Below the pieces are notes generated by a model that searched no databases, was not told the DNA's origin, and worked only from the letters and a program-made list of their open reading frames with translations. A stretch of 64,000 nucleotides of DNA from Nitrosopumilus sp. (GTDB taxonomy: Archaea; Thermoproteota; Nitrososphaeria; Nitrososphaerales; Nitrosopumilaceae), in the NCBI GenBank assembly GCA_965204345.1, contig OZ241981.1, forward strand, positions 512,001 to 576,000, written 5' to 3'. The position numbers and the translations under genes are program-made. Of this stretch, positions 39,366 through 54,091 are shown in pieces. Within the stretch, counting starts at the first letter, position 1. Every line of letters begins with the position of its first letter.

Positions 39366-39385
<20 letters not shown>
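39146..39385 (-). CDS. Small membrane/secreted Cys-containing hypothetical protein
   Basis: Hydrophobic N-terminus; [10 protein letters not shown]...FN..C...EILDCG; start uncertain. Confidence 0.55.
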
Positions 39386-40139
<754 letters not shown>

Positions 40140-41685: not shown

Positions 41686-42000
41686 TCAGATAGAGGCGGT
41701 TCCACGCTGCTTGGTACACAAGTCTAATGCATCATCAACAGCAGTTACAAACACCTTGCCATCGCCTTTTGTTCCAGTACAAGCAACATTTGCAATCGAA
41801 TTTAAGACAGCATCAAGTTTAGTGTCATCTATGACACAGATTATCATTTCCCGACTATAATATTGTCCGACCAGCGGAGGATCTTCTGTGCCCTGTCCCT
41901 GGGCAGACTGAATCGTCACACCGCCAACGCCATTTTTCTTGATGGCTACAACAACAGCATCCCTTATTCCGGGATGAATTATCGCTTCAATTTTTTTCAT
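41686..42000 (-). CDS. PII-family signal transduction protein with a shortened T-loop
   Basis: MKKIEAII, GVGGVT, TGTKGDGKVFV. Confidence 0.88.
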   Translation of the reverse strand: MKKIEAIIHPGIRDAVVVAIKKNGVGGVTIQSAQGQGTEDPPLVGQYYSREMIICVIDDTKLDAVLNSIANVACTGTKGDGKVFVTAVDDALDLCTKQRGTASI

Positions 42001-42040
42001 AGATGGCGTTGAACTTTAATTTCTATAAAGCAGCATGCCT

Positions 42041-42058
42041 ATTCTCACAAATGAATAT
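42041..42058. promoter_or_regulatory. Regulon palindrome upstream of PII
   Basis: ATTCTCA-CAAA-TGAATAT, 41 bp from the ATG at 42000, upstream of a TATA box. Confidence 0.7.
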
Positions 42059-42159
42059 CAGATCAGATAATCATGCGACATTAAATTGATTTTTATAAAA
42101 AAATTATCATGACAGCCTCACAAAGTACTTTGGCATATTTAGAATTTTATATTGCTTGC

Positions 42160-43077
42160 CTAAATTAGATTTAGAGTTTTCTTAATCAGAGTCACCCTAT
42201 TCCTAATTGTGACATCACTAATCCCAGATTCTTTTGCAATCTTAGCCTGAGTTATTTTTTCATTATTTATTATACATGAGAGATACAACGATGCAGATGC
42301 TTGTGCGACAGGGTGCTTACCTGCAGTAATACGTGCATCCTCACAAGACTTTAGTATTTCAAAGGCATCTCGTTTTGTTTTTTCTTTCAAATCCATATTG
42401 TTTGAGATTTTTGAGATAAAGGAAGTGATATCATATTGGGTAAGATTTAACTCAAGCCTTTTGATTATAGTGCGTAAATCTCGAGAAAGAATTCTTCGTT
42501 CTATATTTCCAGCGTTTCCTATATCACTCAAAGTTCTTGGAATGTTATTTTCCCTACATGCAACATACAAAGAGGCAGAAATTAGGGATTTCATGGTTCT
42601 GCCTCTAGTCAGTTTTGCATTTACGGCTTTTCTGTAAATGTATGCTGCATTTTCAACCACATTATTTGGAATCCCCAGCTTTGTCTTCATTGCATGAAGC
42701 AGCGTGAATGCCTTACTCAAGCTAGCAGTTTCTCTGGATTTGCTTCGCTGATCCCAAGTTCGTAATCGGCGAAAGTCATATTTTGTCTTGCTAGATAGTG
42801 CCTTTCCGGTAGAATCTTTGTTTGTGCCAATTACAGTAGATAGCCCCCTGTCATTCATTGTTAATGATGTGGCAGGGCCTGTTCTTGTCAACTTTGCATA
42901 ATCTTCTTGGGTATAGCCATTATTTTCATGTGATGTGTCAATCATATTTTGCAATAAGATAAGACCGCATCCCCCACAAACAACTTCTCCCCGTTCAGAA
43001 TCTGTGATTGCAGGATAGGCTTTGCAAGCATCTAGTTGACACTCGACATCATAATCATTTGAATAATTCTCTATCAC
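42160..43077 (-). CDS. tfb: Transcription initiation factor IIB paralog
   Basis: Zn ribbon ...GEVVCGGCG, RTGP, GLSTVIG, LRTWD, two cyclin repeats, SDVTIRNR. Confidence 0.93.
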   Translation of the reverse strand: MIENYSNDYDVECQLDACKAYPAITDSERGEVVCGGCGLILLQNMIDTSHENNGYTQEDYAKLTRTGPATSLTMNDRGLSTVIGTNKDSTGKALSSKTKYDFRRLRTWDQRSKSRETASLSKAFTLLHAMKTKLGIPNNVVENAAYIYRKAVNAKLTRGRTMKSLISASLYVACRENNIPRTLSDIGNAGNIERRILSRDLRTIIKRLELNLTQYDITSFISKISNNMDLKEKTKRDAFEILKSCEDARITAGKHPVAQASASLYLSCIINNEKITQAKIAKESGISDVTIRNRVTLIKKTLNLI

Positions 43078-43388
43078 TGTTAATTTGTACTAGTCATTAT
43101 AAAATAAAAATAACCTGATAGAGGTAATTTTATGATTAAAAATAAAAAATACATACAAAAAATTCCTATAGTTTCTTTTAGAAATTATTACATTTTATGT
43201 AAAAACATGCAGCATAATAAATGTTAAAATAAAAAAAATTTTTAAAATAAAAATAAAAAATATTTGTGGATTATTGCATCTGTTCCTTCTTTGAGTTTCT
43301 TCTCAATTATCGCATCGGTGTATCTGCCTTGCTGTGCATTACAACCACGGCATTTGCTACAAAACCATCATAGTGATTTTCCAATCCG

Positions 43389-43406
43389 ATATCCACCCAT
43401 GAGAAT
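43389..43406. promoter_or_regulatory. Regulon palindrome upstream of Hsp20
   Basis: ATATCCA-CCCA-TGAGAAT ending 41 bp before the ATG at 43447. Confidence 0.6.
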
Positions 43407-43446
43407 TTACACTTGATTTCATAAATATCCAAAGTCACTGCAAAAT

Positions 43447-43917
43447 ATGACAAAAAAACTCGTCAAAAAACAAGCATCACTGCCAGCAATGCCTAGTTTT
43501 TCTGAATTTGACAGGATTTTTGATGAGTTTAGAGAGGATATGGAAAAATCATTTTTTGCACTCTCCAGAACAGATTTTCCAAAATTTCCAGAAACGACAT
43601 GTGATGTAATTGACGAAGGCAAGCAACTCAGGGTAAAAATGAGTGTTCCAGGTGTTACAAAAAAAGAGGTAGCTTTGAGCGTAACTGATACTGCAATAGA
43701 CATTCGTGCAGAACACAAAGAAGAATCAGAAGAAAAGAAAAAGAATTTTCTTAGAAAAGAGAGAAGCAATGTATCATATAAAAGAATCCTGCCATTGCCT
43801 GACAAAATAATTCCTGCAAGAGTCAAATCAAAACTCACAGACGGAATATTGGAAATCATACTTCCAAAGGCAAAGCCGACAAAAATTCAGAAGAAAAGAA
43901 CAGTAAGAGTTCAGTAG
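43447..43917 (+). CDS. Small heat-shock protein (Hsp20)
   Basis: VPGVTKKEV, RKER..SYKR.LPLP, DGILEIILPK, C-terminal VRV (IXI-like). Confidence 0.93.
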   Translation: MTKKLVKKQASLPAMPSFSEFDRIFDEFREDMEKSFFALSRTDFPKFPETTCDVIDEGKQLRVKMSVPGVTKKEVALSVTDTAIDIRAEHKEESEEKKKNFLRKERSNVSYKRILPLPDKIIPARVKSKLTDGILEIILPKAKPTKIQKKRTVRVQ

Positions 43918-43970
43918 CCTTTTCTTATTTTTTACCGACAGTATAAAAGAATGAAATGACATATTTTATC

Positions 43971-44111
43971 ATGGCAAAGCGAATAACAGTGATGCTAGAT
44001 GATGACAATCTTAAAAAATTGCGGCTAAAACAAGCAAAGGCAATCAAGGAATCATCAAAATCAGTTAGTTTCTCCAGAATAATCAACGACGAAATCAGAA
44101 ACTGTAAGTGA
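43971..44111 (+). CDS. 46-aa ribbon-helix-helix-like protein (absent from the ORF track)
   Basis: MAKRITVMLDDDNLKKLRLKQAKAIKESSKSVSFSRIINDEIRNCK; TATAAAA about 25 bp upstream. Confidence 0.65.
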   Translation: MAKRITVMLDDDNLKKLRLKQAKAIKESSKSVSFSRIINDEIRNCK

Positions 44112-44113
44112 CA

Positions 44114-44275
44114 TCATATCCAAGGATCGGCATCCTCACCCCACTGTTCAACACCTTTGGATGACTTGCTCAGAGAGTTACTTTTTGCAACGTTAGCTAA
44201 AAGACATTCATCAGAGCAGTGACTGAGTTTTGGGCGCCTCATCACTTTGCCACATTTTTTACAAAACTTTCCCAT
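44114..44275 (-). CDS. Small Zn-finger protein
   Basis: MGKFCKKCG...HCSDEC; start at 44275 supported by a TATA box and the regulon motif. Confidence 0.65.
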   Translation of the reverse strand: MGKFCKKCGKVMRRPKLSHCSDECLLANVAKSNSLSKSSKGVEQWGEDADPWI

Positions 44276-44315
44276 TAATGAACAAAGTATTTTTATAAAT
44301 ATACCAACTTTGTAG

Positions 44316-44333
44316 ATTTTCAATACTGATAAT
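44316..44333. promoter_or_regulatory. Regulon palindrome between the divergent Zn-finger and RHH genes
   Basis: ATTTTCA-ATAC-TGATAAT, 41 bp from the ATG at 44275. Confidence 0.7.
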
Positions 44334-44384
44334 GAGTACAAGTATCCAGGATATTTTTGATATGTTTATTTGTAATGTTAAAAT

Positions 44385-44981
44385 ATGAAAATCATGGATG
44401 TGTCTGCGGTAAAAAGAAAGCCACATTCTCAAAAAAAGGGGAAGACAAGAACGGTAACATTTAGGCTCCCAGAGAAATTAATCACAGAGTTAGAAACAGA
44501 GGCCGTACAAAAAGAGATATCTACAAATGTTTTGGCAAGACAAATTTTTGAAAAATTTGCTCGATGGGACAGATTTTCTGACAAAATTGGAATAATACCA
44601 GTGCCAAAAAGAATACTAACATCACTTGGGTTGGATTTGGAAACTCAAGACATCAATATGATAATAGATGTGTTAAAGCCAATAATCAAAGACAATGTAT
44701 TATTCATGAAAGGAAGATATGATTTGAAAAGATGCATAGAAACATTTGAAGACTATGTGAGGGCATCCGGAATGAAATCAGACCACAGAGTGGAAGGCAG
44801 CCTACATCATTTTATCATACAGCACGGGTTAGGAATGAGCTGGTCATTGTTTACAGAACAGCTACTCAAAGAGATATTTCATGAATTTTTACCTGATAAA
44901 ACCGTCAAATCAGAAACAACTGAAACTACTGTGATTACAACCATTGCACTTGGAGCAGATTTTAATGAACATGAATATTAA
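44385..44981 (+). CDS. Putative regulator: N-terminal RHH-like domain plus ligand-binding-like domain
   Basis: TRTVTFRLPEKLITELE...ISTNVL..QIF (RHH-like); IIQHGLG..WS motif. Confidence 0.7.
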   Translation: MKIMDVSAVKRKPHSQKKGKTRTVTFRLPEKLITELETEAVQKEISTNVLARQIFEKFARWDRFSDKIGIIPVPKRILTSLGLDLETQDINMIIDVLKPIIKDNVLFMKGRYDLKRCIETFEDYVRASGMKSDHRVEGSLHHFIIQHGLGMSWSLFTEQLLKEIFHEFLPDKTVKSETTETTVITTIALGADFNEHEY

Positions 44982-44991
44982 AAAAAAGAAA

Positions 44992-45321
44992 CTAGCTGTT
45001 GAGAATTAACTCAACGTTTGTTTTTCCGTTATTAAATACACTTTGTATTCCTTTTACTTTGCTTTTGTAAAGGAACAGCCTTTTGCCATCTTCAGTAATG
45101 ATGCCAGATGTTAAAAGCAATTTGTTGTCATGAAGAGTCTGAATTCTTCGGTATACGGTGCTCATGGGAATCTTTGACTCGGCAGTGATCTCAATTACTG
45201 ACTTTGGTTTGTACATGATGGATTCCAGGATGGTCCTGCAATACTTGTCAGACAAGATTTCAAGCAGGCTATCTTGTTTTTCTGCCTCTTCAATTTTGAA
45301 GGTTTGCTGTAATGATTGCAT
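44992..45321 (-). CDS. ArsR-like winged-helix transcriptional regulator
   Basis: LSDKYCRTIL...PKS..EI....IPMSTVYRRI..L...LL...G...DGK...LY. Confidence 0.85.
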   Translation of the reverse strand: MQSLQQTFKIEEAEKQDSLLEILSDKYCRTILESIMYKPKSVIEITAESKIPMSTVYRRIQTLHDNKLLLTSGIITEDGKRLFLYKSKVKGIQSVFNNGKTNVELILNS

Positions 45322-45361
45322 AAAATAGTATTTTATAGAATATGATATAATAAATCAGTCA

Positions 45362-45378
45362 ACACTGTCTTGCAGTGT
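45362..45378. promoter_or_regulatory. Perfect inverted repeat upstream of the wHTH gene (probable operator)
   Basis: ACACTG-TCTTG-CAGTGT, 41 bp from the ATG at 45321. Confidence 0.5.
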
Positions 45379-45502
45379 ATACGATTATTTTCTGAAATTC
45401 ATCCCCCATTTCGTGCCTCATCTTTTCTGATTTTGGCCAACACCAAAGACAAAATGTCAGGATCTTGATTTTTAAATTTGACAGACCATAAAGCAGGCTT
45501 TA

Positions 45503-46774
45503 TTATTTTTTAGAGAATTTATAGAATAATGCACCAATTCCAACAAGCGCCATCCCTATAAGCACAACTTTGAATTCAAATTGCAAAGTCATGTATATTG
45601 AGATTCCAACTCCAAATAATGGAAGAATGGGAAACCTGCCAATGTTTAATGGAACTGTGAATTTTCTTTGGATCTCAGGTTCGGTATAACGTAAAACAAT
45701 TACTGCCAAATTTACAGCGGCAAAAGTAATTACAATGGCAAAAACAGCAATGTTTGCAACAATTACAATATCACCAATTAATGTAAAAGAAATCGACATA
45801 ATCATAATCACAATAATTGCCATCCAGGGAGTTTTGGTCCTAAAATGAATTTTTTTTAGGAACAATGGGAATGCCTGTTCTCTTGCCATGCCATAAAAAA
45901 TTCTAGAACCGGCAACAAGAGTAATCAAAACAGTGTTGGTTATGGCAAAAAGGGCAATTGATGAAAGCAGTACATGTGCTTTAGGACCTAGTCCTCTTTC
46001 TGCAACCAATGCAATGGGTGCAGATGAGGCTGCAAGTTCGCTCCAGTCTACAACTCGTACCACAGACAAAGAGACAAGTATGTAAATTGTTCCAGTAATC
46101 AGAACGGATAAAACTATTGCCCGAGGGATGGTTTTTTTAGGATTTTTTACCTCTTCTGCTATATTTGCCATATTTTCAAATCCAATAAACGCAAAAAATA
46201 TCAATACAAATGCAACCATAATTCCTGCAAGGCCTGTGGGGCTTTCAGCATAATCTACAGGTGCAGGATTAACAAAGGTAAACCCAATTATAATAATCAA
46301 AACCAGGCCTGTCGCTTCAATTATTGTAAAAATGGTATTTGTCCATGCAGATTCCCTAATCCCCATGAAATTTACCAGTGAAAGAATAGCCAACAGCCCA
46401 ATTGCAGATAAAACTATAGGCAGATCCACAAACTCCGAAAAATAGCCGCCGAATCCCAATGCAACAGTTGAGGCAGTAATAACAGAAGTAACGGCAGTTA
46501 GCCATCCAATAATAAAAGCAGCAAAATTATTTTTGAAAGCATTTTTAACAAAGACATACTCTGCGGCAGCCTTTGGAAATACAGAGGATAATTCAGCATA
46601 GCTGAATCCAGCAAATAATGCAACAATGGATCCCAAAACAAATGCAACCCATACTGCATTACCTGCAATACCTGCCGCCTCTCCTATCAGTACATAGATT
46701 CCCGCACCAAGAATTAATCCAACCCCATACATGGTAAGTTGAAAGAGGCCCATGTGTCGTTTTAGCTCAGACAA
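45503..46774 (-). CDS. APC-family amino acid permease
   Basis: GLILGAGIY, YAELSS..P..A..Y, FFAFIGFE...AEEVKNP; about 12 TM helices. Confidence 0.92.
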   Translation of the reverse strand: MSELKRHMGLFQLTMYGVGLILGAGIYVLIGEAAGIAGNAVWVAFVLGSIVALFAGFSYAELSSVFPKAAAEYVFVKNAFKNNFAAFIIGWLTAVTSVITASTVALGFGGYFSEFVDLPIVLSAIGLLAILSLVNFMGIRESAWTNTIFTIIEATGLVLIIIIGFTFVNPAPVDYAESPTGLAGIMVAFVLIFFAFIGFENMANIAEEVKNPKKTIPRAIVLSVLITGTIYILVSLSVVRVVDWSELAASSAPIALVAERGLGPKAHVLLSSIALFAITNTVLITLVAGSRIFYGMAREQAFPLFLKKIHFRTKTPWMAIIVIMIMSISFTLIGDIVIVANIAVFAIVITFAAVNLAVIVLRYTEPEIQRKFTVPLNIGRFPILPLFGVGISIYMTLQFEFKVVLIGMALVGIGALFYKFSKK

Positions 46775-46813
46775 CAAATTGCTTTGTTAGTCAATGATAA
46801 GAGGAAAGTTACG

Positions 46814-46831
46814 ATTATTGATGGTGAAAAT
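46814..46831. promoter_or_regulatory. Weaker regulon palindrome upstream of the APC permease
   Basis: ATTATTG-ATGG-TGAAAAT, 40 bp from the TTG at 46774. Confidence 0.45.
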
Positions 46832-46881
46832 AAGGATTTGGTTTATTTGCCATAGATTACGTTTTGCTTAGTTCTGTTAAA

Positions 46882-47307
46882 TCACTTTACAATCAATACT
46901 GGTTTGCCGGATTTATGAAGGACATAGTTTGATGTGCTGCCCAAGAAAATCTCTCTTGCCGCACTCATCCCTCTAGAACCAATCACGATAAGATCAAAAT
47001 TGTGTCTTGAAGCAATATCAACTATTCTTTTTCCGTCATCGCCATAAGAGACTCGCTCAAAAAACAAAATGCCCTTTTTTGCTGCCTTTAGCTTGGCTTT
47101 TTTCATAATTTTTTTGGCATGATCTAAAAAAAGTCTTTCCATAGGAGGCATGGGTTCGTCAGTTCTAGGTTTAACCATCCCAATCACATACAAGCCAGTA
47201 ACAGCGGCATGAGACTCTCTTGCCATCTGAATTGCAACGTCTAAACCACGAAAAGAGTTAGGAGAGCCATCTAGGGGCACTAGAATTTTCTTTATGCTAA
47301 TTGCCAT
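46882..47307 (-). CDS. Universal stress protein
   Basis: KILVPLDGSPNS, DLIVIGSRG...FLGSTS..V.H....VLIVK. Confidence 0.93.
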   Translation of the reverse strand: MAISIKKILVPLDGSPNSFRGLDVAIQMARESHAAVTGLYVIGMVKPRTDEPMPPMERLFLDHAKKIMKKAKLKAAKKGILFFERVSYGDDGKRIVDIASRHNFDLIVIGSRGMSAAREIFLGSTSNYVLHKSGKPVLIVK

Positions 47308-47346
47308 GAAAAAATACGCTAATTTTTAAATTTAAAGACAATCGAG

Positions 47347-47377
47347 ATTCTCCCAGTTGATTTTCATATATGACATT
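47347..47377. promoter_or_regulatory. Two overlapping regulon palindromes in the USP/CBS divergent promoter
   Basis: ATTCTCC-CAGT-TGATTTT (47347, 40 bp from the USP ATG) and ATTTTCA-TATA-TGACATT (47360). Confidence 0.65.
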
Positions 47378-47421
47378 CTAGATGAACATGAAATATCAAA
47401 TCAGACATTGTGAATTGTAAG

Positions 47422-47883
47422 ATGAATAATGCAAAGACCATGACTATTGCAGATGTTATGACAAAATCAGTGATTTCAGTGGATGCATCCATGACAGTAA
47501 ATGAAGCTGCAAAGATGATGGAAGACACAAAGGTTGGTGCAGTCATTGTAATGGAAAACAACATTCCCGTAGGAATTATCACAGATAGAGATTTTGCAGT
47601 AAAGGTTGTAGCCCATGCATATCAAATTACATCTCCAGTAAAGCAGATAATGTCATCTCCCTTATTCTCAATAAGCTTAGACGAGTCAGTTAGGACAGCA
47701 GCTGATTTAATGCATGCACGAGGGATAATGAAACTGCCCGTAATTGATGGCGAAAAGGTTGTAGGAATAATAACAGCAAGGGATATTGTTAATTTATTGG
47801 CAGTTTGTGTGGAAGATGACGTACGAGACATGTACTTTCATTCAGTAGTGAAAATATTTTCAGATTACAGCCCATATAACTAA
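47422..47883 (+). CDS. CBS-pair protein
   Basis: IADVMT, VGIITDRD, IMSSPL, LPVID...VGIITARD; start could be 47410-47440. Confidence 0.9.
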   Translation: MNNAKTMTIADVMTKSVISVDASMTVNEAAKMMEDTKVGAVIVMENNIPVGIITDRDFAVKVVAHAYQITSPVKQIMSSPLFSISLDESVRTAADLMHARGIMKLPVIDGEKVVGIITARDIVNLLAVCVEDDVRDMYFHSVVKIFSDYSPYN

Positions 47884-48269
47884 AAAAAATTACGGCAAGC
47901 CAGATAATACTAGCAGCAATGCCATTTTTTATTGGAATTGCAACGTATCTCCATGGAACAGCCAGCCAGAATAACCGCAAAGAACGTCTCAGAAAAGAAG
48001 AAGAAGCCAAATAGGAATATTCTGTATGTGATTTTGTCAGGAATTTGGGCTTTTCTCTTTGCTGGGAATTATACCACAATTTAAAAAAGGTGCTTTGATA
48101 ATAACTTGAGGTAGTACCAAGCATGAATACAGCCCCATACTGGAATAAAAAAATATGTTCAGATTGCAAGAGAATGCGGTGTGACAAAGGATGTCTTTGT
48201 GACTGCCATCAGTTACGAGATAGAACAAATTAAGCAATATCTGCATATCTTTTAAAAAAAAATTACCAG

Positions 48270-48707
48270 TTAATCAGGACCCAGTCTCAAAAGTATCTGA
48301 TCACAGATTTTGCGCATTTGGGAATCAGAACCTACACTAGAAATTCTTACAATATCACTAGTGGTGATGATTCCAATAATTTTGTCATTTTCTCTTACAG
48401 GTAGTTTATGAATGTCTTTTTCTTTCATCATCTCTGAGGCCTCCCACACTGTTGCTTCCGGACCAATGGTGATCAAAGGAGAGGACATTACTTCATAAAT
48501 TTCAGTAAAAAGAGGCTTGCCTCCGGCTATGACTTTGGTTACAAAGTCCCTTTCAGTTACAATTCCAACAGGCCTTGCATCATCGGTAATAACAACACAG
48601 CCGATATTTTGTGTTTTCATGCGCTCAGCAGCTTCTTGTAATGAGGCCAGCTTGTCAACAGTTAGAACGGTTTTGCTCATTATCTGATTTACAAACGTAC
48701 TATCCAT
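48270..48707 (-). CDS. CBS-pair protein
   Basis: VNQIMS, VGIVTERD, VMSSPL, LPV...IGIITTSD. Confidence 0.9.
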   Translation of the reverse strand: MDSTFVNQIMSKTVLTVDKLASLQEAAERMKTQNIGCVVITDDARPVGIVTERDFVTKVIAGGKPLFTEIYEVMSSPLITIGPEATVWEASEMMKEKDIHKLPVRENDKIIGIITTSDIVRISSVGSDSQMRKICDQILLRLGPD

Positions 48708-48747
48708 ACGACACAACATATTTCCAATTATATCAGATAAATTCCAG

Positions 48748-48765
48748 ATTATCATTTTTGAGAAT
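48748..48765. promoter_or_regulatory. Near-perfect regulon palindrome in the CBS/USP divergent promoter
   Basis: ATTATCA-TTTT-TGAGAAT; 41 bp from the CBS ATG at 48707 and 54 bp from the USP ATG at 48819. Confidence 0.75.
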
Positions 48766-48818
48766 CAGCAAAGAAAATCACAATATCTTTTAAAATATAA
48801 AAACAAGAGTTCCAACAT

Positions 48819-49250
48819 ATGGCAATATCAACAAAGAGAATACTGGTTCCCTTAGATGGCTCAAAAAATTCAGTCAGGGGATTGGACATGGCCATACACA
48901 TTGCAAGGCAATCTCAGGGAACAATCACGGCACTATCAGTAAAATCAGTGCCTGGAATATATTCACTTCACCCCCTAGGATTTTTGGATCTTAATTCAAT
49001 GACAGAAGTGAAAAAACTGCTTGAAGATTCAAAGGTAAGGGCTGCAAAAAAAGGAATCAAATTGGTTGGAAAGGCACTTGCAGGAGATCCGGGATACGAT
49101 ATTGCAAGATTTGCAAATAATGCAAAAAACAAAATTGATCTAGTGGTAATTGGCGCTCGTGGAAGAAGCTCTGCAAAAGAGATTTTCTTGGGCAGCACGT
49201 CAAACTATGTCCTTCACAAATCCAAGAAACCAGTATTGATTGTAAAATAA
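48819..49250 (+). CDS. Universal stress protein
   Basis: RILVPLDGSKNS, DLVVIGARG...FLGSTS. Confidence 0.93.
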   Translation: MAISTKRILVPLDGSKNSVRGLDMAIHIARQSQGTITALSVKSVPGIYSLHPLGFLDLNSMTEVKKLLEDSKVRAAKKGIKLVGKALAGDPGYDIARFANNAKNKIDLVVIGARGRSSAKEIFLGSTSNYVLHKSKKPVLIVK

Positions 49251-49259
49251 TCAAGAACC

Positions 49260-49675
49260 GTCATTTTAAAAAAAATGCTGATGTCAATGGACGGTTTGAA
49301 ATTTTCTCAAAAAGCGTTACAGCGGGCATGCGAAATTGCCAAAGCACTTGATTCAAAAATTATTCTGCTTTATGTGATTGAAAATCCACCTGTGATTAGC
49401 CTTTTAGATCGTAGGAAAATCTTAATTTATTGCAACAGTTTGGAACCAGGACACTTAAAAAAAGCAAACGACATGTGGTAAAAGAAGAGATCGGTGCAAA
49501 GAGTCTTAAAAAGAGAAAGCATTGCAGGTAAAATTAAAAAATTTGTTAAAACTGAAAAATGCAGTCTGATAGTAGTGGAAAGCAGGGATTGGGAACAGTT
49601 AGCAAAGCGCTGCTTGAAAGTGTTTCAAACAGACTTGCGCAAACATTATCTTGTTTGCTGTTGACTGCAAAATAA
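49260..49675 (+). pseudogene. Frameshifted universal stress protein
   Basis: FKKMLMSMDGLKFSQKAL..ACEIAK; later frames give CSLIVVESR and GLGTVSKALLESVSNRLA. Confidence 0.75.
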
Positions 49676-49677
49676 AG

Positions 49678-50529
49678 TCATGCTAGTGTATTTACAATAT
49701 CAGACTTTGTAATAATGCCCACTAACCTTGATTTTTTGACTACGGGTAATCCACTAATGTCATATTTTATCATACGAGTAATAGCCAACCTAACATCCTC
49801 ATCTGCCTGAATTGTGATGGGATTGGTTGCCATGATGTCAGCGGCGTTGAATGCAAAGAGATAGCTCAAGTGATTGGGATGATGTTCTCTTAGTCCCTTA
49901 TGGAATTGATACTCTTTAACCTCAAGAGGATCTGCAGATTCTGCAATCCACTTGGGAACCTTTGCAGGCACAAAATCTCGAAAGGTAATCACTCCCACGG
50001 GTAGCGAATCACGTTTTACGATAATTCTTGATATTCCATATTTCATCATTAGACCCTCCACATGAAGTATTGGATCACTTGGAGCAACAGTGATTAATTT
50101 TCTTGTCATTATTTTTGAAACTTTTATTGGCATCACATTTTTTGTGAGGAAGACAGTTACAAGATTGGTTTTAGTCACGATTCCTCTCAGAGTTTTGTTT
50201 TTGTTGAGAATAATCACCAAATTAATTCGATGCTTTTTCATCAGTTGTGCACATTCTTCAATAGAATCGTCTGGAGTCAGTGCAAATAATGTTTTTGATG
50301 TAAAGTCTTTTGCCTTTACTGATTTTATTGGCTTTGTACCCAACTCATAAATCTTCCTTGCAATGTCCTTTTCAGTTATTACTCCAGTTGGTTTTTTTTG
50401 ATCTAAAACTATTACTCGCTTTATCTTATGCTCAAGTAAGATTTCCCTTATTCTCAACAGCGAGGTGCCAGGAGTGACTGTGAGAGGTTTTATGATTACA
50501 TTGGATAATTTTGATTTTTTTATATCCAC
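49678..50529 (-). CDS. Four-CBS-domain protein
   Basis: GVITEKD, GIVTKTN, GVITFRD, GIITKSD; GTG start at 50529 supported by motif spacing. Confidence 0.9.
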   Translation of the reverse strand: MDIKKSKLSNVIIKPLTVTPGTSLLRIREILLEHKIKRVIVLDQKKPTGVITEKDIARKIYELGTKPIKSVKAKDFTSKTLFALTPDDSIEECAQLMKKHRINLVIILNKNKTLRGIVTKTNLVTVFLTKNVMPIKVSKIMTRKLITVAPSDPILHVEGLMMKYGISRIIVKRDSLPVGVITFRDFVPAKVPKWIAESADPLEVKEYQFHKGLREHHPNHLSYLFAFNAADIMATNPITIQADEDVRLAITRMIKYDISGLPVVKKSRLVGIITKSDIVNTLA

Positions 50530-50568
50530 GGCAATTCTGTGCCACAAGTTGGTAAATACCCCATCAAT

Positions 50569-50586
50569 AATTTCAAAAGTGAGAAT
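50569..50586. promoter_or_regulatory. Regulon palindrome between the 4xCBS and HPF-like genes
   Basis: AATTTCA-AAAG-TGAGAAT; 40 bp from the GTG at 50529 and 54 bp from the ATG at 50640. Confidence 0.7.
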
Positions 50587-50639
50587 CAAGATGATGTATT
50601 TATCATACTAGTTTTAGTTTTAATTAAGAAGCACAGGAT

Positions 50640-51005
50640 ATGTCAGAGAAGATTCCAATATATGTAACAGGATTGCCAAAAGATGAGCCAGCTGGAGAGC
50701 TGCTGGCATCAAAATTTGGCAGCACGTTAGAAAAGGTCAGACAGGTGCTATCAGACATAATTGAAGCAAAGATTGATGTAAAATCTCAAAATACAGACGG
50801 AACAAAATCCCATTATGATGTAACTGCAATTATTAAAACATCAAGCGAGCAGCTAACGTATACGGAATCAGGCTGGGATATTCTTAAAATTGCAGATGAA
50901 CTGTCTAGAAAATTGGAAAGAGAGTTATCAAAGCATGATGACAAACGTCAAAGAGAGAGCATTCGTAAAAAAGATATCAGAGTCTCAAAAATGAGATCTA
51001 GTTGA
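50640..51005 (+). CDS. Stand-alone HPF/RaiA-like putative ribosome hibernation factor
   Basis: Beta-alpha-beta-beta-beta-alpha pattern: IYVTG..., IIEAKIDVK, YDVTAII, ESGWDILKIADELSRKLERELSK; basic tail. Confidence 0.65.
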   Translation: MSEKIPIYVTGLPKDEPAGELLASKFGSTLEKVRQVLSDIIEAKIDVKSQNTDGTKSHYDVTAIIKTSSEQLTYTESGWDILKIADELSRKLERELSKHDDKRQRESIRKKDIRVSKMRSS

Positions 51006-51232
51006 TTTCAATGGGCAGTAAGAGTCAGAAAAGCAGTAGTATTTCCAGGTGCAGTTAATTCTTCTTTGGATAGCATTTATCGATAAACAATTCTAAAAAA
51101 CAAGGCAATTCAAAAAGCATTAGATGTTGCAAGTGCCTCCTTCTCCTCCATCAAGGAACCATCAATAAAACCATCAAAATATAATTTCATTTTTCATTTA
51201 TTGGCAGTCTAATGTCAATAACGGATATGAGT

Positions 51233-51250
51233 AATTTCAATATTGGAAAT
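51233..51250. promoter_or_regulatory. Regulon palindrome upstream of a USP
   Basis: AATTTCA-ATAT-TGGAAAT ending 41 bp before the ATG at 51291. Confidence 0.6.
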
Positions 51251-51290
51251 CATCACTGTCTCTTATATTGAATATATTGTGTTGCAATAC

Positions 51291-51713
51291 ATGTCAAAAT
51301 TAAGAAAAATTCTTGTCCCGCTAGACGGATCAGCAAACTCCAACAGGGGACTAGACAAAGCAATTGAAATTGCAAAAGGCAGTGATGCAGAGATTACGGG
51401 ATTTTATGTATTTCATGTGCCTCTTGCTGCAGGAGTAAAATATACCCAAAAAATGAAAGATCAGGTACAGGAGAAAGCAGTTAAAGCAATTGGTCCGGCA
51501 ATGGTTCGTGCAAGAAAGGCAGGAATCAAATTCCAACATAAAGAGGGAGGAGGCCATACAGGTTCGGAGATCCTCAAATTTGCACAAAAGGGAAAGTTTG
51601 ACATGATTACAATTGGTGCCAGAGGAAGAGGCGGCATTAAGGAGGCATTTCTTGGAAGTACATCAAACTATGTCATGCACAAATCAAAAATTCCAGTATT
51701 GATTGTAAAATAA
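51291..51713 (+). CDS. Universal stress protein
   Basis: KILVPLDGSANS, DMITIGARGRG...FLGSTS. Confidence 0.93.
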   Translation: MSKLRKILVPLDGSANSNRGLDKAIEIAKGSDAEITGFYVFHVPLAAGVKYTQKMKDQVQEKAVKAIGPAMVRARKAGIKFQHKEGGGHTGSEILKFAQKGKFDMITIGARGRGGIKEAFLGSTSNYVMHKSKIPVLIVK

Positions 51714-52478: not shown

Positions 52479-53294
52479 ATGAGTTCTGATTCCTATCAAT
52501 TACCATATATAGAAATGGCATGGGTTTGAGATAACAAACAGTATGGTGTTTCTCTAAACAATCCAGTTGTTATGGTTGGAGAAGATATGCAAACATATCA
52601 CGTAAAATTTAACAAACCAGATGATCTTAGAATTGGAATTAATGAAATAGTTTGCAGTTTAGTGGGTTTAGAGTTGGAATTACCTCTCTTTAAGCCAATA
52701 ATTGCTAAAATTTCTCAAAAAGTAATTGACAGTCATGACTCTTTAGCAGGTTATTGTGCAGGAGAACATTTTGCTCAAGTGTATTTACAACCATTTGAAA
52801 CAGTCAACTCATACATAGGCCAAGGTAAAGAACTCAAAAAAGAAAATGTGGCAAATATAAGATCAGTACCAGATCTAATTGTCTTTGACAAGTATGTAGA
52901 AAATTACGATAGACATGGAGATAACATTTGCCTACGACCAAATGAAGCATTGAGTACAAAGGTTGATTATTACTTATTTGATCATGATTTGGCATTTCAA
53001 AGAAATGACACAAAGACAGACATAAGCAATTTACGTGACTTGAAAAAAGAGTTGATTCACATGTGCTATGTTGTTGATGATGTAAATAAAAGGACATTAT
53101 TTTGGCGTGGAACTAGCAAATGTATTGGATTGAAATCTAAAATTCCAGATTTAATTAAAAAAATCCCAAAATCATGGGCAGAAGGATATGAATCATATAT
53201 GTCAGATATAGAAATTTTACTTTCAAAATTTTCTGAAAGTATCATGAATGAGCATATAGAACTTAATAAAGGAAGATTCCCTAAATTACAGTAG
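52479..53294 (+). pseudogene. HipA-like kinase with an in-frame TGA at 52527-52529
   Basis: YHVK, NEIVCS, FDKYVENYDRHGDN, YLFDHDLAF; upstream in-frame ATG at 52479 and the YGVSLNNP loop lie before ATG 52572. Confidence 0.7.
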
Positions 53295-53296
53295 TC

Positions 53297-54091
53297 ATGA
53301 CTGAGTGTGAATTTTCTGTAATTAAATATGTGCCAGATATTGTAAGATTTGAACCAGTCAATGTTGGGATTGCATTATTGGATAAGGAAAATAAAAAAAT
53401 GCATAACAAGTACATTAGAAATTTTTCAGCATTTTTTGATAGGTTAGGTGTTGAAAAAATTAATGGTTTTGAACATTCATTTGAAAATTATAAATCAATA
53501 GTAAATGTAGATAATTCCGATTACTTATGGAAACTTCATGATTCGTTTCAAGGCAGTATGTTTTATTCTGAACCAACAAAGATCAAATCAGATACAATCG
53601 ATGCTACTTTACAGCAAATTTTTAACAAAATGATTAGCATTCCAGAAAAAGAAATTTCAGTTAAGGAACAAATATCAGTAAATGTAATTAAAACAAAAAT
53701 TAAACGGCATATTACAAAATTAAAATTTCCAGAAAAATCATACAAAGAAAGATATGAAATTATTCCGGAAACAAAGATTCCACAAACACGAGATTTTGCC
53801 TTTCTTAAAGAAGATGAACTAATAAACACTATTGATATTTTCACTTTTTCAAGCACTGGATTACTTGACAATCTTAAATTATTTTTATATGAAATAGATG
53901 CAATAATGAAATCAAAAATATCCCAGAACAATCAACCATTAATATTCAGTACCAAGCCAATTAATGCCTATGAAAAGTCTAGATCAGTTCATCAGTCAAT
54001 AGAATATTTGCATATGAGCAAAATCTCGATAATATATCCTGATAAACAAGAAGAAATGATTCAAAAAATTCGAAATAATATAGCAGTCTAA
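53297..54091 (+). CDS. DUF3037-domain protein, partner of the HipA-like kinase
   Basis: FSVIKYVPDIVRFEPVNVGIAL; C-terminal DFAFLK resembles a nuclease-like fold. Confidence 0.75.
   Translation: MTECEFSVIKYVPDIVRFEPVNVGIALLDKENKKMHNKYIRNFSAFFDRLGVEKINGFEHSFENYKSIVNVDNSDYLWKLHDSFQGSMFYSEPTKIKSDTIDATLQQIFNKMISIPEKEISVKEQISVNVIKTKIKRHITKLKFPEKSYKERYEIIPETKIPQTRDFAFLKEDELINTIDIFTFSSTGLLDNLKLFLYEIDAIMKSKISQNNQPLIFSTKPINAYEKSRSVHQSIEYLHMSKISIIYPDKQEEMIQKIRNNIAV

Follow-up and report, generated by a model that had tools for sequence, protein, structure and literature searches.

A position-locked palindromic box, a second palindrome and a candidate regulator relay in a putative low-oxygen regulon of Nitrosopumilus and its relatives

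Introduction

The DosR (DevR) regulon of mycobacteria carries universal stress protein (USP), small heat-shock and hibernation-type genes, and the FNR/ANR regulons contain hydrogenase, pyruvate:ferredoxin oxidoreductase (PFOR), haem synthesis and arginine deiminase pathway genes. In a FixLJ-FixK-type cascade, a sensor tier switches on a second activator, which is able to repress its own gene. The regulator MsvR joins a helix-turn-helix (HTH) to V4R, and the heat-shock regulator Phr is a repressor whose site differs from those described here. In this study, we analysed a 64,000-nucleotide stretch of Nitrosopumilus sp. DNA (contig OZ241981.1, positions 512,001 to 576,000; hereafter, the window), in which an 18-bp palindromic box with the consensus ATTHTCA-N4-TGADAAT stands at a fixed distance before the genes of a stress-gene island (window positions 41686-51713). 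The host genome (G000), which the names of its homologues assign to Nitrosopumilus, comprises 2.12 Mb on 9 contigs and is 99.7% complete, and the comparison set contains 201 genomes of the order, with families, genera, genomes and loci labelled f, g, G and L, respectively.

As in the DosR set, USP, small heat-shock, CBS and hibernation-factor genes are targets here, which agrees with the DosR-like gene content seen in the initial annotation. The targets in families f7 and f10 further share hydrogenase, PFOR, haem synthesis, arginine deiminase pathway and USP genes with the FNR/ANR and FixLJ-FixK systems. However, the half-sites here (TCA..TGA) stand in the reverse order of those of the FNR box, and FNR systems use a CRP/FNR-type HTH (PF13545), which has no match in the host genome (controls 14/14), whereas the candidates here are a winged helix-turn-helix protein (wHTH) of the ArsR/Phr fold and a large ribbon-helix-helix (RHH) fusion protein (RHHL). 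HTH_10 (Bat/DmsR/NarO-type) also has no match in the host genome, though it is present and preceded by a box in an f7 locus. DosR, as described in the accessible part of PMC3177182, resembles the present system in its palindromic boxes, its tandem boxes at divergent promoters and its hypoxic induction. However, the DosR box core given there is GGGACT rather than TCA-N4-TGA. DosR is a receiver-HTH response regulator with a linked kinase, whereas the host genome has only two receiver matches, both stand-alone (121-122 aa) and beside two kinases far from the island, which itself holds no two-component genes. Unlike DosR promoters, those here are archaeal promoters with a TATA box and a TFB recognition element (BRE). 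The likeness to DosR is convergent, and the system is neither DosR nor FNR by descent.

Two Pyrococcus regulators are also close. TFB-RF1 (PF1088) serves two operons through a different motif, according to the accessible part of PMC5937170, whereas tens of promoters are concerned here; the TFB-RF1-type arrangement, i.e., a palindrome at a fixed distance directly upstream of BRE/TATA, is found here as well. HhpR of Pyrococcus yayanosii is a 4xCBS protein at an inducible archaeal promoter, and it binds a TA-rich upstream sequence (PMC11705074), whereas the 4xCBS genes here are targets. In its cargo and logic the present system would resemble DosR or FNR/FixK, and in the geometry of its promoters it would resemble TFB-RF1.

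Box position and promoter anatomy

All nine palindrome sites of the initial annotation are present, at 42041, 43389, 44316, 46814, 47347, 47360, 48748, 50569 and 51233, and the fixed 40-41 bp spacing to eight gene starts claimed there holds. Counted as the bases between box edge and start codon (the gap, one less than the earlier distances), the spacing is 40 for PII, Hsp20, the Zn-finger protein, the CBS protein starting at 48707 and the USP starting at 51291, and 39 for the APC permease (TTG start at 46774), the USP at 46882..47307 and the 4xCBS protein starting at 50529; across targets, it is 39-41 bp. Among the starts that had been chosen from alternatives, 48707 is matched by orthologue N-termini at offset 0 in 28/33 cases and 50529 in 20/26, and the TTG at 46774 corresponds to an ATG at the identical codon in L086. 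The APC site at 46814 is the weakest (8.6 bits), and two boxes had been missed, at 42054 (16.4 bits) and 48761 (10.4 bits), together with a palindrome of another type at 45361.

The motif exceeds background. With at most two mismatches, the consensus has 22 matches in the window compared with a shuffle mean of 10.1, and 0 of 100 shuffles reach 22; eight of the nine sites are among these matches, the exception being 47347. Boxes of at least 10 bits at gap 39-41 precede 6/14 called island genes versus 5/2004 genes elsewhere (Fisher 1.5e-11), a test that is not fully independent, as the scoring matrix was built from relatives' sites first picked with a window-trained matrix. Over the range of gaps considered (36-47), 330 of 466 pairs of a box and an open reading frame (ORF) fall at 39-41.

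A TATA-like TTWWW begins 10-12 bases past the box in 148 of 208 scored cases, as expected from the proposed location just upstream of BRE/TATA, and this leaves space for the BRE only. The mean A at BRE positions is 1.27 in 71 box promoters, 1.71 in 76 promoters of the same loci and 1.77 in 257 promoters of the host genome (p 0.017 and 0.0002), a modest effect among orthologues that are not independent. In TFB-RF1 promoters, whose BRE is weak, a palindrome likewise stands at a conserved distance upstream of BRE and TATA (PMC5937170, accessible part). Because the geometry matches, activation by a box-binding factor is suggested, and the box is very probably an activator-type site.

The initial annotation also reported an exact 54-bp spacing to the opposite gene at divergent promoters. 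This spacing exists; however, it does not come from a single site: each of the two genes has a box of its own, and the two boxes overlap at an offset of 13 bp. A second box at +13 occurs in 71% of 83 divergent promoters versus 28% of 68 others, and among 302 strong boxes, offset 13 accounts for 114 neighbours, with no other offset giving more than 4. The double boxes of the window are 47347/47360, 48748/48761 and 42041/42054.

Conservation and targets across the order

In 30 same-family loci fetched around 4xCBS homologues, unselected gaps of 0-99 peak at 39-42 and 52-54. Homologues of island genes (n = 278) give 97 hits at gap 39-42 and 52 at 52-54, and other genes (n = 516) give 34 at 39-42. 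The box+TATA pattern is matched in 168 of the 201 genomes, and a reversed control gives 0-2 matches in most genomes (maximum 9), so that the conservation in related promoters anticipated by the initial annotation was found. Most f1 genomes have 7-28 matches, six of the seven f7 genomes have 8-49, and f4 and f10 have 2-13 and 0-10, respectively; several f1 genomes, f12, f13, f19 and genus g57 are near zero. In f7 and f10, whose genomes have 44-66% G+C, the consensus sharpens to RATTCTCA-N4-TGAGAATCGT with the TATA distance unchanged. Judged from these sequence comparisons, we regard it as nearly certain that the box is conserved in orthologous and non-orthologous promoters and that the regulon is real.

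Boxed genes in relatives encode CBS, USP, Hsp20 and PII proteins, blue-copper proteins, an ammonium transporter, the thermosome, a flavin-binding PNPOx-like protein, a phosphoribosyltransferase and AMP phosphorylase. These identities come from two scans of 52 and 36 proteins out of 132 cluster representatives; genes were called with a simple purpose-made caller, and single-member clusters include spurious ORFs. In 20 f7/f10 loci selected because boxes cluster in them, the 119 oriented sites lie before, among other genes, those of NiFe hydrogenase small subunits (two genomes), three Tat-type FAD_binding_2 flavoproteins of the fumarate-reductase type, TatA/TatC, a NarJ/TorD chaperone, a PFOR operon, carbamate kinase, HypC, DsrE, HemA, DnaK, USP and CBS. 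This target set is FNR-like, and its anaerobic-metabolism genes are boxed in the f7/f10 loci and not in the host genome. From gene content, size and G+C, f7 and f10 appear not to be ammonia oxidisers and g57 appears to be a Nitrososphaera-like genus; on that basis, the regulon is not confined to ammonia oxidisers, which goes beyond its initial description as a programme in an ammonia-oxidising archaeon.

In the part of the sites whose loci were read, neither nirK nor amo appeared as a target. A 436-aa boxed gene in marine loci, considered as nirK, was rejected, as it has a DinB_2 N-terminus and looks EgtB-like, and a malate dehydrogenase target in L060 was dropped, as the box lies inside the gene. 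A family of 180-200 aa membrane proteins without a Pfam match (L143:9270, L148:17562, L137:4608, L142:3917, L063:12688) is a recurrent regulon member: its genes carry a box in f7 and f10, and in g57 they are close to element 2, described below.

Element 2 and the motif swap in g57

A second, TGCA-repeat palindrome (element 2, TGCAYTG-N5-CARTGCA) ends ~10 bases before the TATA of wHTH promoters; in the window, an element of this type (45361..45379, 17.3 bits) stands at gap 39 before the wHTH gene. Such repeats precede 24/41 wHTH-family genes versus 9/2018 genes of the host genome. Element 2 is found mainly before wHTH genes in f1, precedes wHTH in f4 loci and Hsp20 or CBS genes in g43 and g59 loci, and occurs in 3/47 f10 genomes.

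Although f15 at first seemed to lack the regulon, this does not hold for g57, where element 2 is used. In the 201-genome scan, 16/18 g57 genomes have at least two element-2 matches (median 7) with a box median of 0.5; the f7 medians are 0 for element 2 and 24 for the box. A matrix seeded from f1/f4 wHTH loci located element 2 in three boxless g57 loci, where it precedes genes for 4xCBS and CBS proteins, PFOR, nitroreductase, Cdc48 and alcohol dehydrogenase, and 53 of 118 g57 hits (12 loci) lie at gap 38-42. All nine further g57 loci, two of which were fetched for the motif rather than for RHHL, carry an RHHL orthologue amid USP, CBS, Hsp20, PII and APC genes, together with 3-18 element-2 sites, no box of at least 13 bits and no wHTH. 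The orthologues are 40-44% identical with the strand TRS[IV]TFR, and a close RHHL occurs in 7/7 g57 genomes profiled. In g57, element 2 replaces the box at the same targets. The simplest reading would pair RHHL with element 2 and the wHTH carrying an STxYRR helix with the box. The statement that wHTH is absent from g57 was rejected as a sensitivity effect, since the profile detects other subfamilies in 5/5; eight g57 wHTH-family hits belong to such subfamilies, without the STxYRR helix. In g15, the RHHL orthologue lies outside an island and element 2 is missing around it (L408-410), which speaks against this pairing.

A g57 multicopper oxidase with a fused cupredoxin also stands under element 2 (L399:11407-12732, L406:10450-11778) and is of interest for the low-oxygen NO chemistry of these archaea.

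Candidate regulators

From five family searches and additional local ones, ~48 genes of the host genome emerged as possible regulators, three of which were profiled across genomes. Only the families of wHTH (44992..45321, minus strand) and RHHL (44385..44981, plus strand) recur in regulon loci (19 and 18 loci). Of the local regulators proposed initially, these two stand as candidates, probably acting in series through two different palindromes, whereas neither the small RHH protein (43971) nor the TFB paralogue is preceded by a box or has particular support. In a panel of 37 f1 genomes, the median number of box+TATA matches is 14.5 (4-28) where close copies of both wHTH and RHHL occur (24 genomes) and 1 (0-7) in the 13 without them.

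The predicted wHTH model (pLDDT 89.4) is an ArsR/Phr-type winged helix, closest to Phr (Z 12.4, rmsd 2.5, 97 aligned), and its STxYRR helix is present in f1, f4, f7 and f10. The AlphaFold2 model of RHHL (pLDDT 87.9) comprises an RHH domain (residues 16-66) and a possibly H-NOX/V4R/Bet3-like C-domain (68-189), which aligns with VirS-N, CdpR, BcsD, TRAPPC3, H-NOX and DmpR at Z 4.8-7.3 and with a designed protein at Z 8.0. The near-invariant residues H144, G147 and S151 are placed at a strand-helix turn. In contrast to H-NOX, the model seems to have no canonical haem ligand. The combination of RHH with this C-domain falls within no Pfam or NCBIfam family over cut-off; the RHHL family spans 2502 clusters at 50% identity. 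An ESM Atlas search gave only unnamed Nitrososphaerota clusters, under 0.9. Sequence searches of the PDB returned 0 hits with the wHTH profile and 3 weak hits with the RHHL profile. Strong boxes at gaps 1 and 14, a repressing position, lie over the wHTH start in five genomes (6/40 wHTH genes versus 4/785 others have boxes over the start), which would fit autorepression.

Several observations weigh against these assignments. The f1 panel was selected knowing the counts, its members are kin and not independent, and wHTH and RHHL are usually island neighbours, so that co-occurrence would be expected of any island gene. Five of the six over-start boxes come from one clade and so represent about one event, and no box stands at the wHTH promoter of the window itself. 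In G084 (70 contigs), 7 matches occur without close wHTH or RHHL; G045 and G145 carry an STCYRR wHTH yet have 0 matches; and the f15 genera g15 and g43 have 3-21 matches, where controls reach 9, with no STxYRR wHTH found. The fold matches of the RHHL C-domain to natural proteins are middling, with no Z of at least 8 and Foldseek E above 0.001, and the segment corresponding to the H-NOX proximal helix (111-124, mapped from secondary structure rather than superposition) has no His.

An HTH protein whose C-terminus looks B12-binding-like on visual inspection (C1:955888-956781, L215) was rejected as the binder: it is present in 27/28 f1 genomes, including boxless ones, and in 0/14 f7/f10 genomes. 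It occurs in f1, f4, f9 and f15 and not in f7, f10, f12, f13 or f19, and may track ammonia oxidisers. Tandem distant wHTH paralogues at C1:213503-214183 and C6:1605-2285, identical on both contigs, have weak box-like scores at gap 44-45.

Proposed mechanism and signal

In the explanation that we favour on balance, a dimeric activator would bind the box one BRE-width upstream of TATA and recruit TFB to weak-BRE, mostly leaderless promoters, with divergent promoters packing two boxes 13 bp apart, one per gene. RHHL would sense the signal via its H-NOX/V4R-like pocket, bind element 2 and switch on the wHTH gene, a role that the sequence evidence makes probable; wHTH, which is a reasonably probable box-binding activator, would then bind the box and activate USP, CBS, Hsp20, HPF, PII and other genes. 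In g57, RHHL would drive the same targets directly through element 2, whereas in f7 and f10 the box and the wHTH family would work without element 2. That the regulon is a low-oxygen or respiratory-limitation programme is fairly probable. The comparisons establish the two motifs with their positions, targets and distributions, and the folds as models, whereas the pairing of proteins with sites, the activation, the signal and any dormancy are inferred.

Co-induction, as predicted initially, is seen for the same gene families in the accessible parts of two reports (10.1101/2023.02.27.530229; PMC12974425). In two sponge thaumarchaeal symbionts, UspA, HSP20, CBS, PII and a "TBP stabilizer" were up in hypoxia in situ, with 20 and 17 genes changed (10.1101/2023.02.27.530229). 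In N. maritimus (PMC12974425, rows of Dataset S3 and rows/first part of Dataset S4), the CBS proteins Nmar_0673, 1271 and 1304 and the USPs Nmar_0674 and 1272 had zero spectral counts outside 32 °C iron-replete samples (n = 5), Nmar_1481 was almost confined to these samples, and Nmar_0164, 1274 and 1768 were raised there. The Hsp20 Nmar_0010 was higher at 32 °C iron-limited, suggesting that the CBS/USP set is not a plain heat response. Three uspA transcripts showed no significant change under ammonia starvation or copper stress in the same report, which is why low oxygen or respiratory limitation appears a better fit for the signal than ammonia starvation.

Other published data point away from this signal. 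Under anoxia, only 3 and 0 genes changed in the sponge symbionts, and the set is not shown in the accessible part of that report (10.1101/2023.02.27.530229); similarly, the main text of an anoxia proteome names no USP or CBS protein in its accessible part (10.1101/2021.04.01.436977). The N. maritimus authors read their pattern as heat stress, the USP/CBS rows Nmar_1012, 1334, 1659, 0568, 0764 and 0778 do not follow the 32 °C iron-replete pattern, and the CBS transcripts Nmar_1481 and Nmar_0164 were up under copper limitation (PMC12974425, same datasets); moreover, the Nmar genes are tied to boxes only by family and CBS/USP arrangement. PMC13475601 contains no differential expression analysis because its anoxic RNA was degraded. 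As contigs, RNA runs contain 14-33% of the sequence words. The accessible passages of PMC12448741 and PMC5847659 do not describe this system.

The same regulon and relay could instead answer stress on energy supply or electron transport in general, be it through heat-driven demand, copper limitation or adenylate charge, and low oxygen would then be only one of the routes. This is possible, though less probable; it would accommodate the adenine-nucleotide binding of CBS, USP and PII proteins as well as the 32 °C iron-replete induction, the two copper-responsive CBS genes and the set going unreported under full anoxia. However, the set was off at 32 °C iron-limited while Hsp20 Nmar_0010 rose, the hydrogenase, PFOR, NarJ/TorD and arginine deiminase pathway targets are oxygen-linked in FNR/ANR regulons, and the sponge symbionts responded to hypoxia in situ. 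Chance palindromes in AT-rich intergenic DNA, combined with flexible start choice, would be in keeping with the 30 matches of the loose 18-bp pattern in the host genome, many within repeats or coding DNA, but are refuted by the positional conservation across families and by the box being clearest in genomes of 44-66% G+C; we give this next to no weight.

The identity of the binder might also differ. A third factor at the box, such as an HhpR-like CBS-only activator, the island's TFB paralogue recognising an extended element or a regulator whose gene lies elsewhere, would leave wHTH as a target or side branch; HhpR, a 4xCBS protein, does activate a Pyrococcus promoter (PMC11705074), the exceptions G084, G045 and G145 would be explained, and only three of the ~48 candidates were profiled. 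We consider this unlikely, since the HhpR site is TA-rich and non-palindromic (PMC11705074), g57 retains 4xCBS genes yet has no box, 8 and 11 matches occur in G172 and G155, where no 4xCBS hit was obtained, no candidate families other than wHTH and RHHL are recurrent in regulon loci, and the HTH/B12-binding-like candidate failed. Still less likely are swapped roles, with RHHL tetramers on the box and wHTH activating its own gene via element 2, whose CTG-N5-CAG core is TFB-RF1-like. TFB-RF1 binds TCTG-N5-CAGA and activates its own operon (PMC5937170, accessible part), f1 element 2 lies mainly before wHTH genes, and RHH proteins can bind 18-bp sites (AmrZ structure entry). However, g57 combines close RHHL (7/7) and many element-2 sites with no boxes and no STxYRR wHTH found, whereas f7 and f10 combine many boxes and an STxYRR wHTH with only distant RHHL and almost no element 2 (3/47 f10 genomes).

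Organisation of the island

Pfam matches in the island comprise PII, TFIIB, Hsp20, an APC permease, four USPs, three CBS proteins and an S30AE/HPF-like protein. At its left end, PII (41686..42000, minus; Pfam P-II, gap 40), which has a 9-member boxed cluster in relatives, is served by the box at 42041..42058 (15.8 bits). The second box at 42054..42071, offset by 13 bp, has no divergent gene and is possibly a relic of a PII/CBS divergent pair, since PII and CBS are divergent in L045. Facing away from PII, it is followed only by a 19-codon ORF (ATG 42109) antisense to the TFB 3' end; it may be a relic or a small RNA promoter. The TFB paralogue (42160..43077, minus; Pfam TFIIB) is a boxless member, and copies 75-81% identical lie near islands in L042, L043, L046, L047 and L048, with no upstream box seen. 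The box at 43389..43406 (14.7 bits) serves Hsp20 (43447..43917, plus; Pfam, gap 40), the only Hsp20 found in the host genome with that query.

The small RHH-like gene (43971..44111, plus) has no box, has one paralogue in the genome and is present in L080 and L229. It is followed by the 53-aa Cys-rich Zn-finger gene (44114..44275, minus), a conserved box target found in 4/5 genomes searched. The box at 44316..44333 (19.9 bits) stands between this gene and RHHL, as in L224-226, L228 and L229. A TATCC-W-GGATA palindrome between that box and the RHHL start (44344-44356), partly retained in L093, is possibly a third operator. Beyond RHHL, wHTH and element 2 comes the APC permease (45503..46774, minus; Pfam), a probable target of its weak box (46814..46831).

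The double box 47347..47377 (12.5 and 16.9 bits) forms the divergent promoter of a USP (46882..47307, minus; Pfam) and a 2xCBS protein (47422..47883, plus; Pfam, gap 44), both targets. Another 2xCBS target (48270..48707, minus), whose orthologue promoters have a box at gap 39-41 in 28/30 cases, shares the double box 48748..48778 (21.8 and 10.4 bits) with a USP (48819..49250, plus; Pfam, gap 40) served by the 48761 box; this second box is present in 26/30 orthologue promoters. There follows a frameshifted USP pseudogene (49275..49676, plus), with a Pfam match over its first 68 codons and the remaining domain in other frames; most relatives have an intact USP at its position. The 4xCBS target (49678..50529, minus; Pfam) and the HPF/YfiA-like gene (50640..51005, plus; Pfam S30AE right at cut-off, TIGR00741 below cut-off) diverge from the box at 50569..50586 (17.0 bits). 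The second box there has decayed, its +13 site (50582) scoring -5.9 bits, whereas in 17/20 HPF orthologue pairs a separate box is present at gap 39-41. The broken USP gene and this decayed box suggest that the island is eroding in the host genome. At the right end, the box at 51233..51250 (16.1 bits) serves a USP (51291..51713, plus; Pfam, gap 40).

Elsewhere in the genome, the five boxed genes exceed the 0.81 of control windows (p 0.0015), which makes a small number of scattered members likely, the best being an exported protein at C1:1383803. The candidates include two adjacent exported proteins (C1:1383744 and C1:1384496, L216; 20.3 and 12.7 bits), the second with boxed homologues in L250 and L329, and a proteasome alpha, an Lsm and a 569-aa exported protein at C1:834659, C1:1464107 and C1:1129342, the last protein resembling a boxed gene in L052. 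Flanking the island are a HipA_2 kinase + DUF3037 gene pair on the right (52572-54091) and, at 39366-40139, a protein with a long Pro-Glu-Pro-Thr repeat N-terminus, which we take to be Alba-like. Thaumarchaeal integrated elements commonly carry USP, CBS, TFB and RHH genes (PMC6563490, accessible part), and the spread of such genes on these elements may explain the patchy, island-like distribution of the regulon.

Concluding remarks

Neither motif nor the relay was found in the open-access full-text literature, where motifs printed as figures are invisible to search. The roles that UspA proteins play in regulation in these archaea have been called largely unknown (PMC12974425, accessible part). 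The motif swap over one gene set provides a clean archaeal case of regulon rewiring, and with two motifs, two candidate proteins and a list of targets the question can be put to the test. Tentatively, the system may be an order-wide archaeal counterpart of FNR and DosR that is older than ammonia oxidation and is run by a new one-component oxygen/redox sensor (RHH plus an H-NOX/V4R-like domain), acting directly or via an inserted winged-helix relay, with its gene set rewired between two motifs. Ammonia-oxidising archaea depend on oxygen and nevertheless abound where little of it is present; how they sense and survive this is the question that the system bears on. The motifs provide a genome-only marker for the response and, if this counterpart is real, would show which ammonia oxidisers mount a low-oxygen shutdown and which genes they use.

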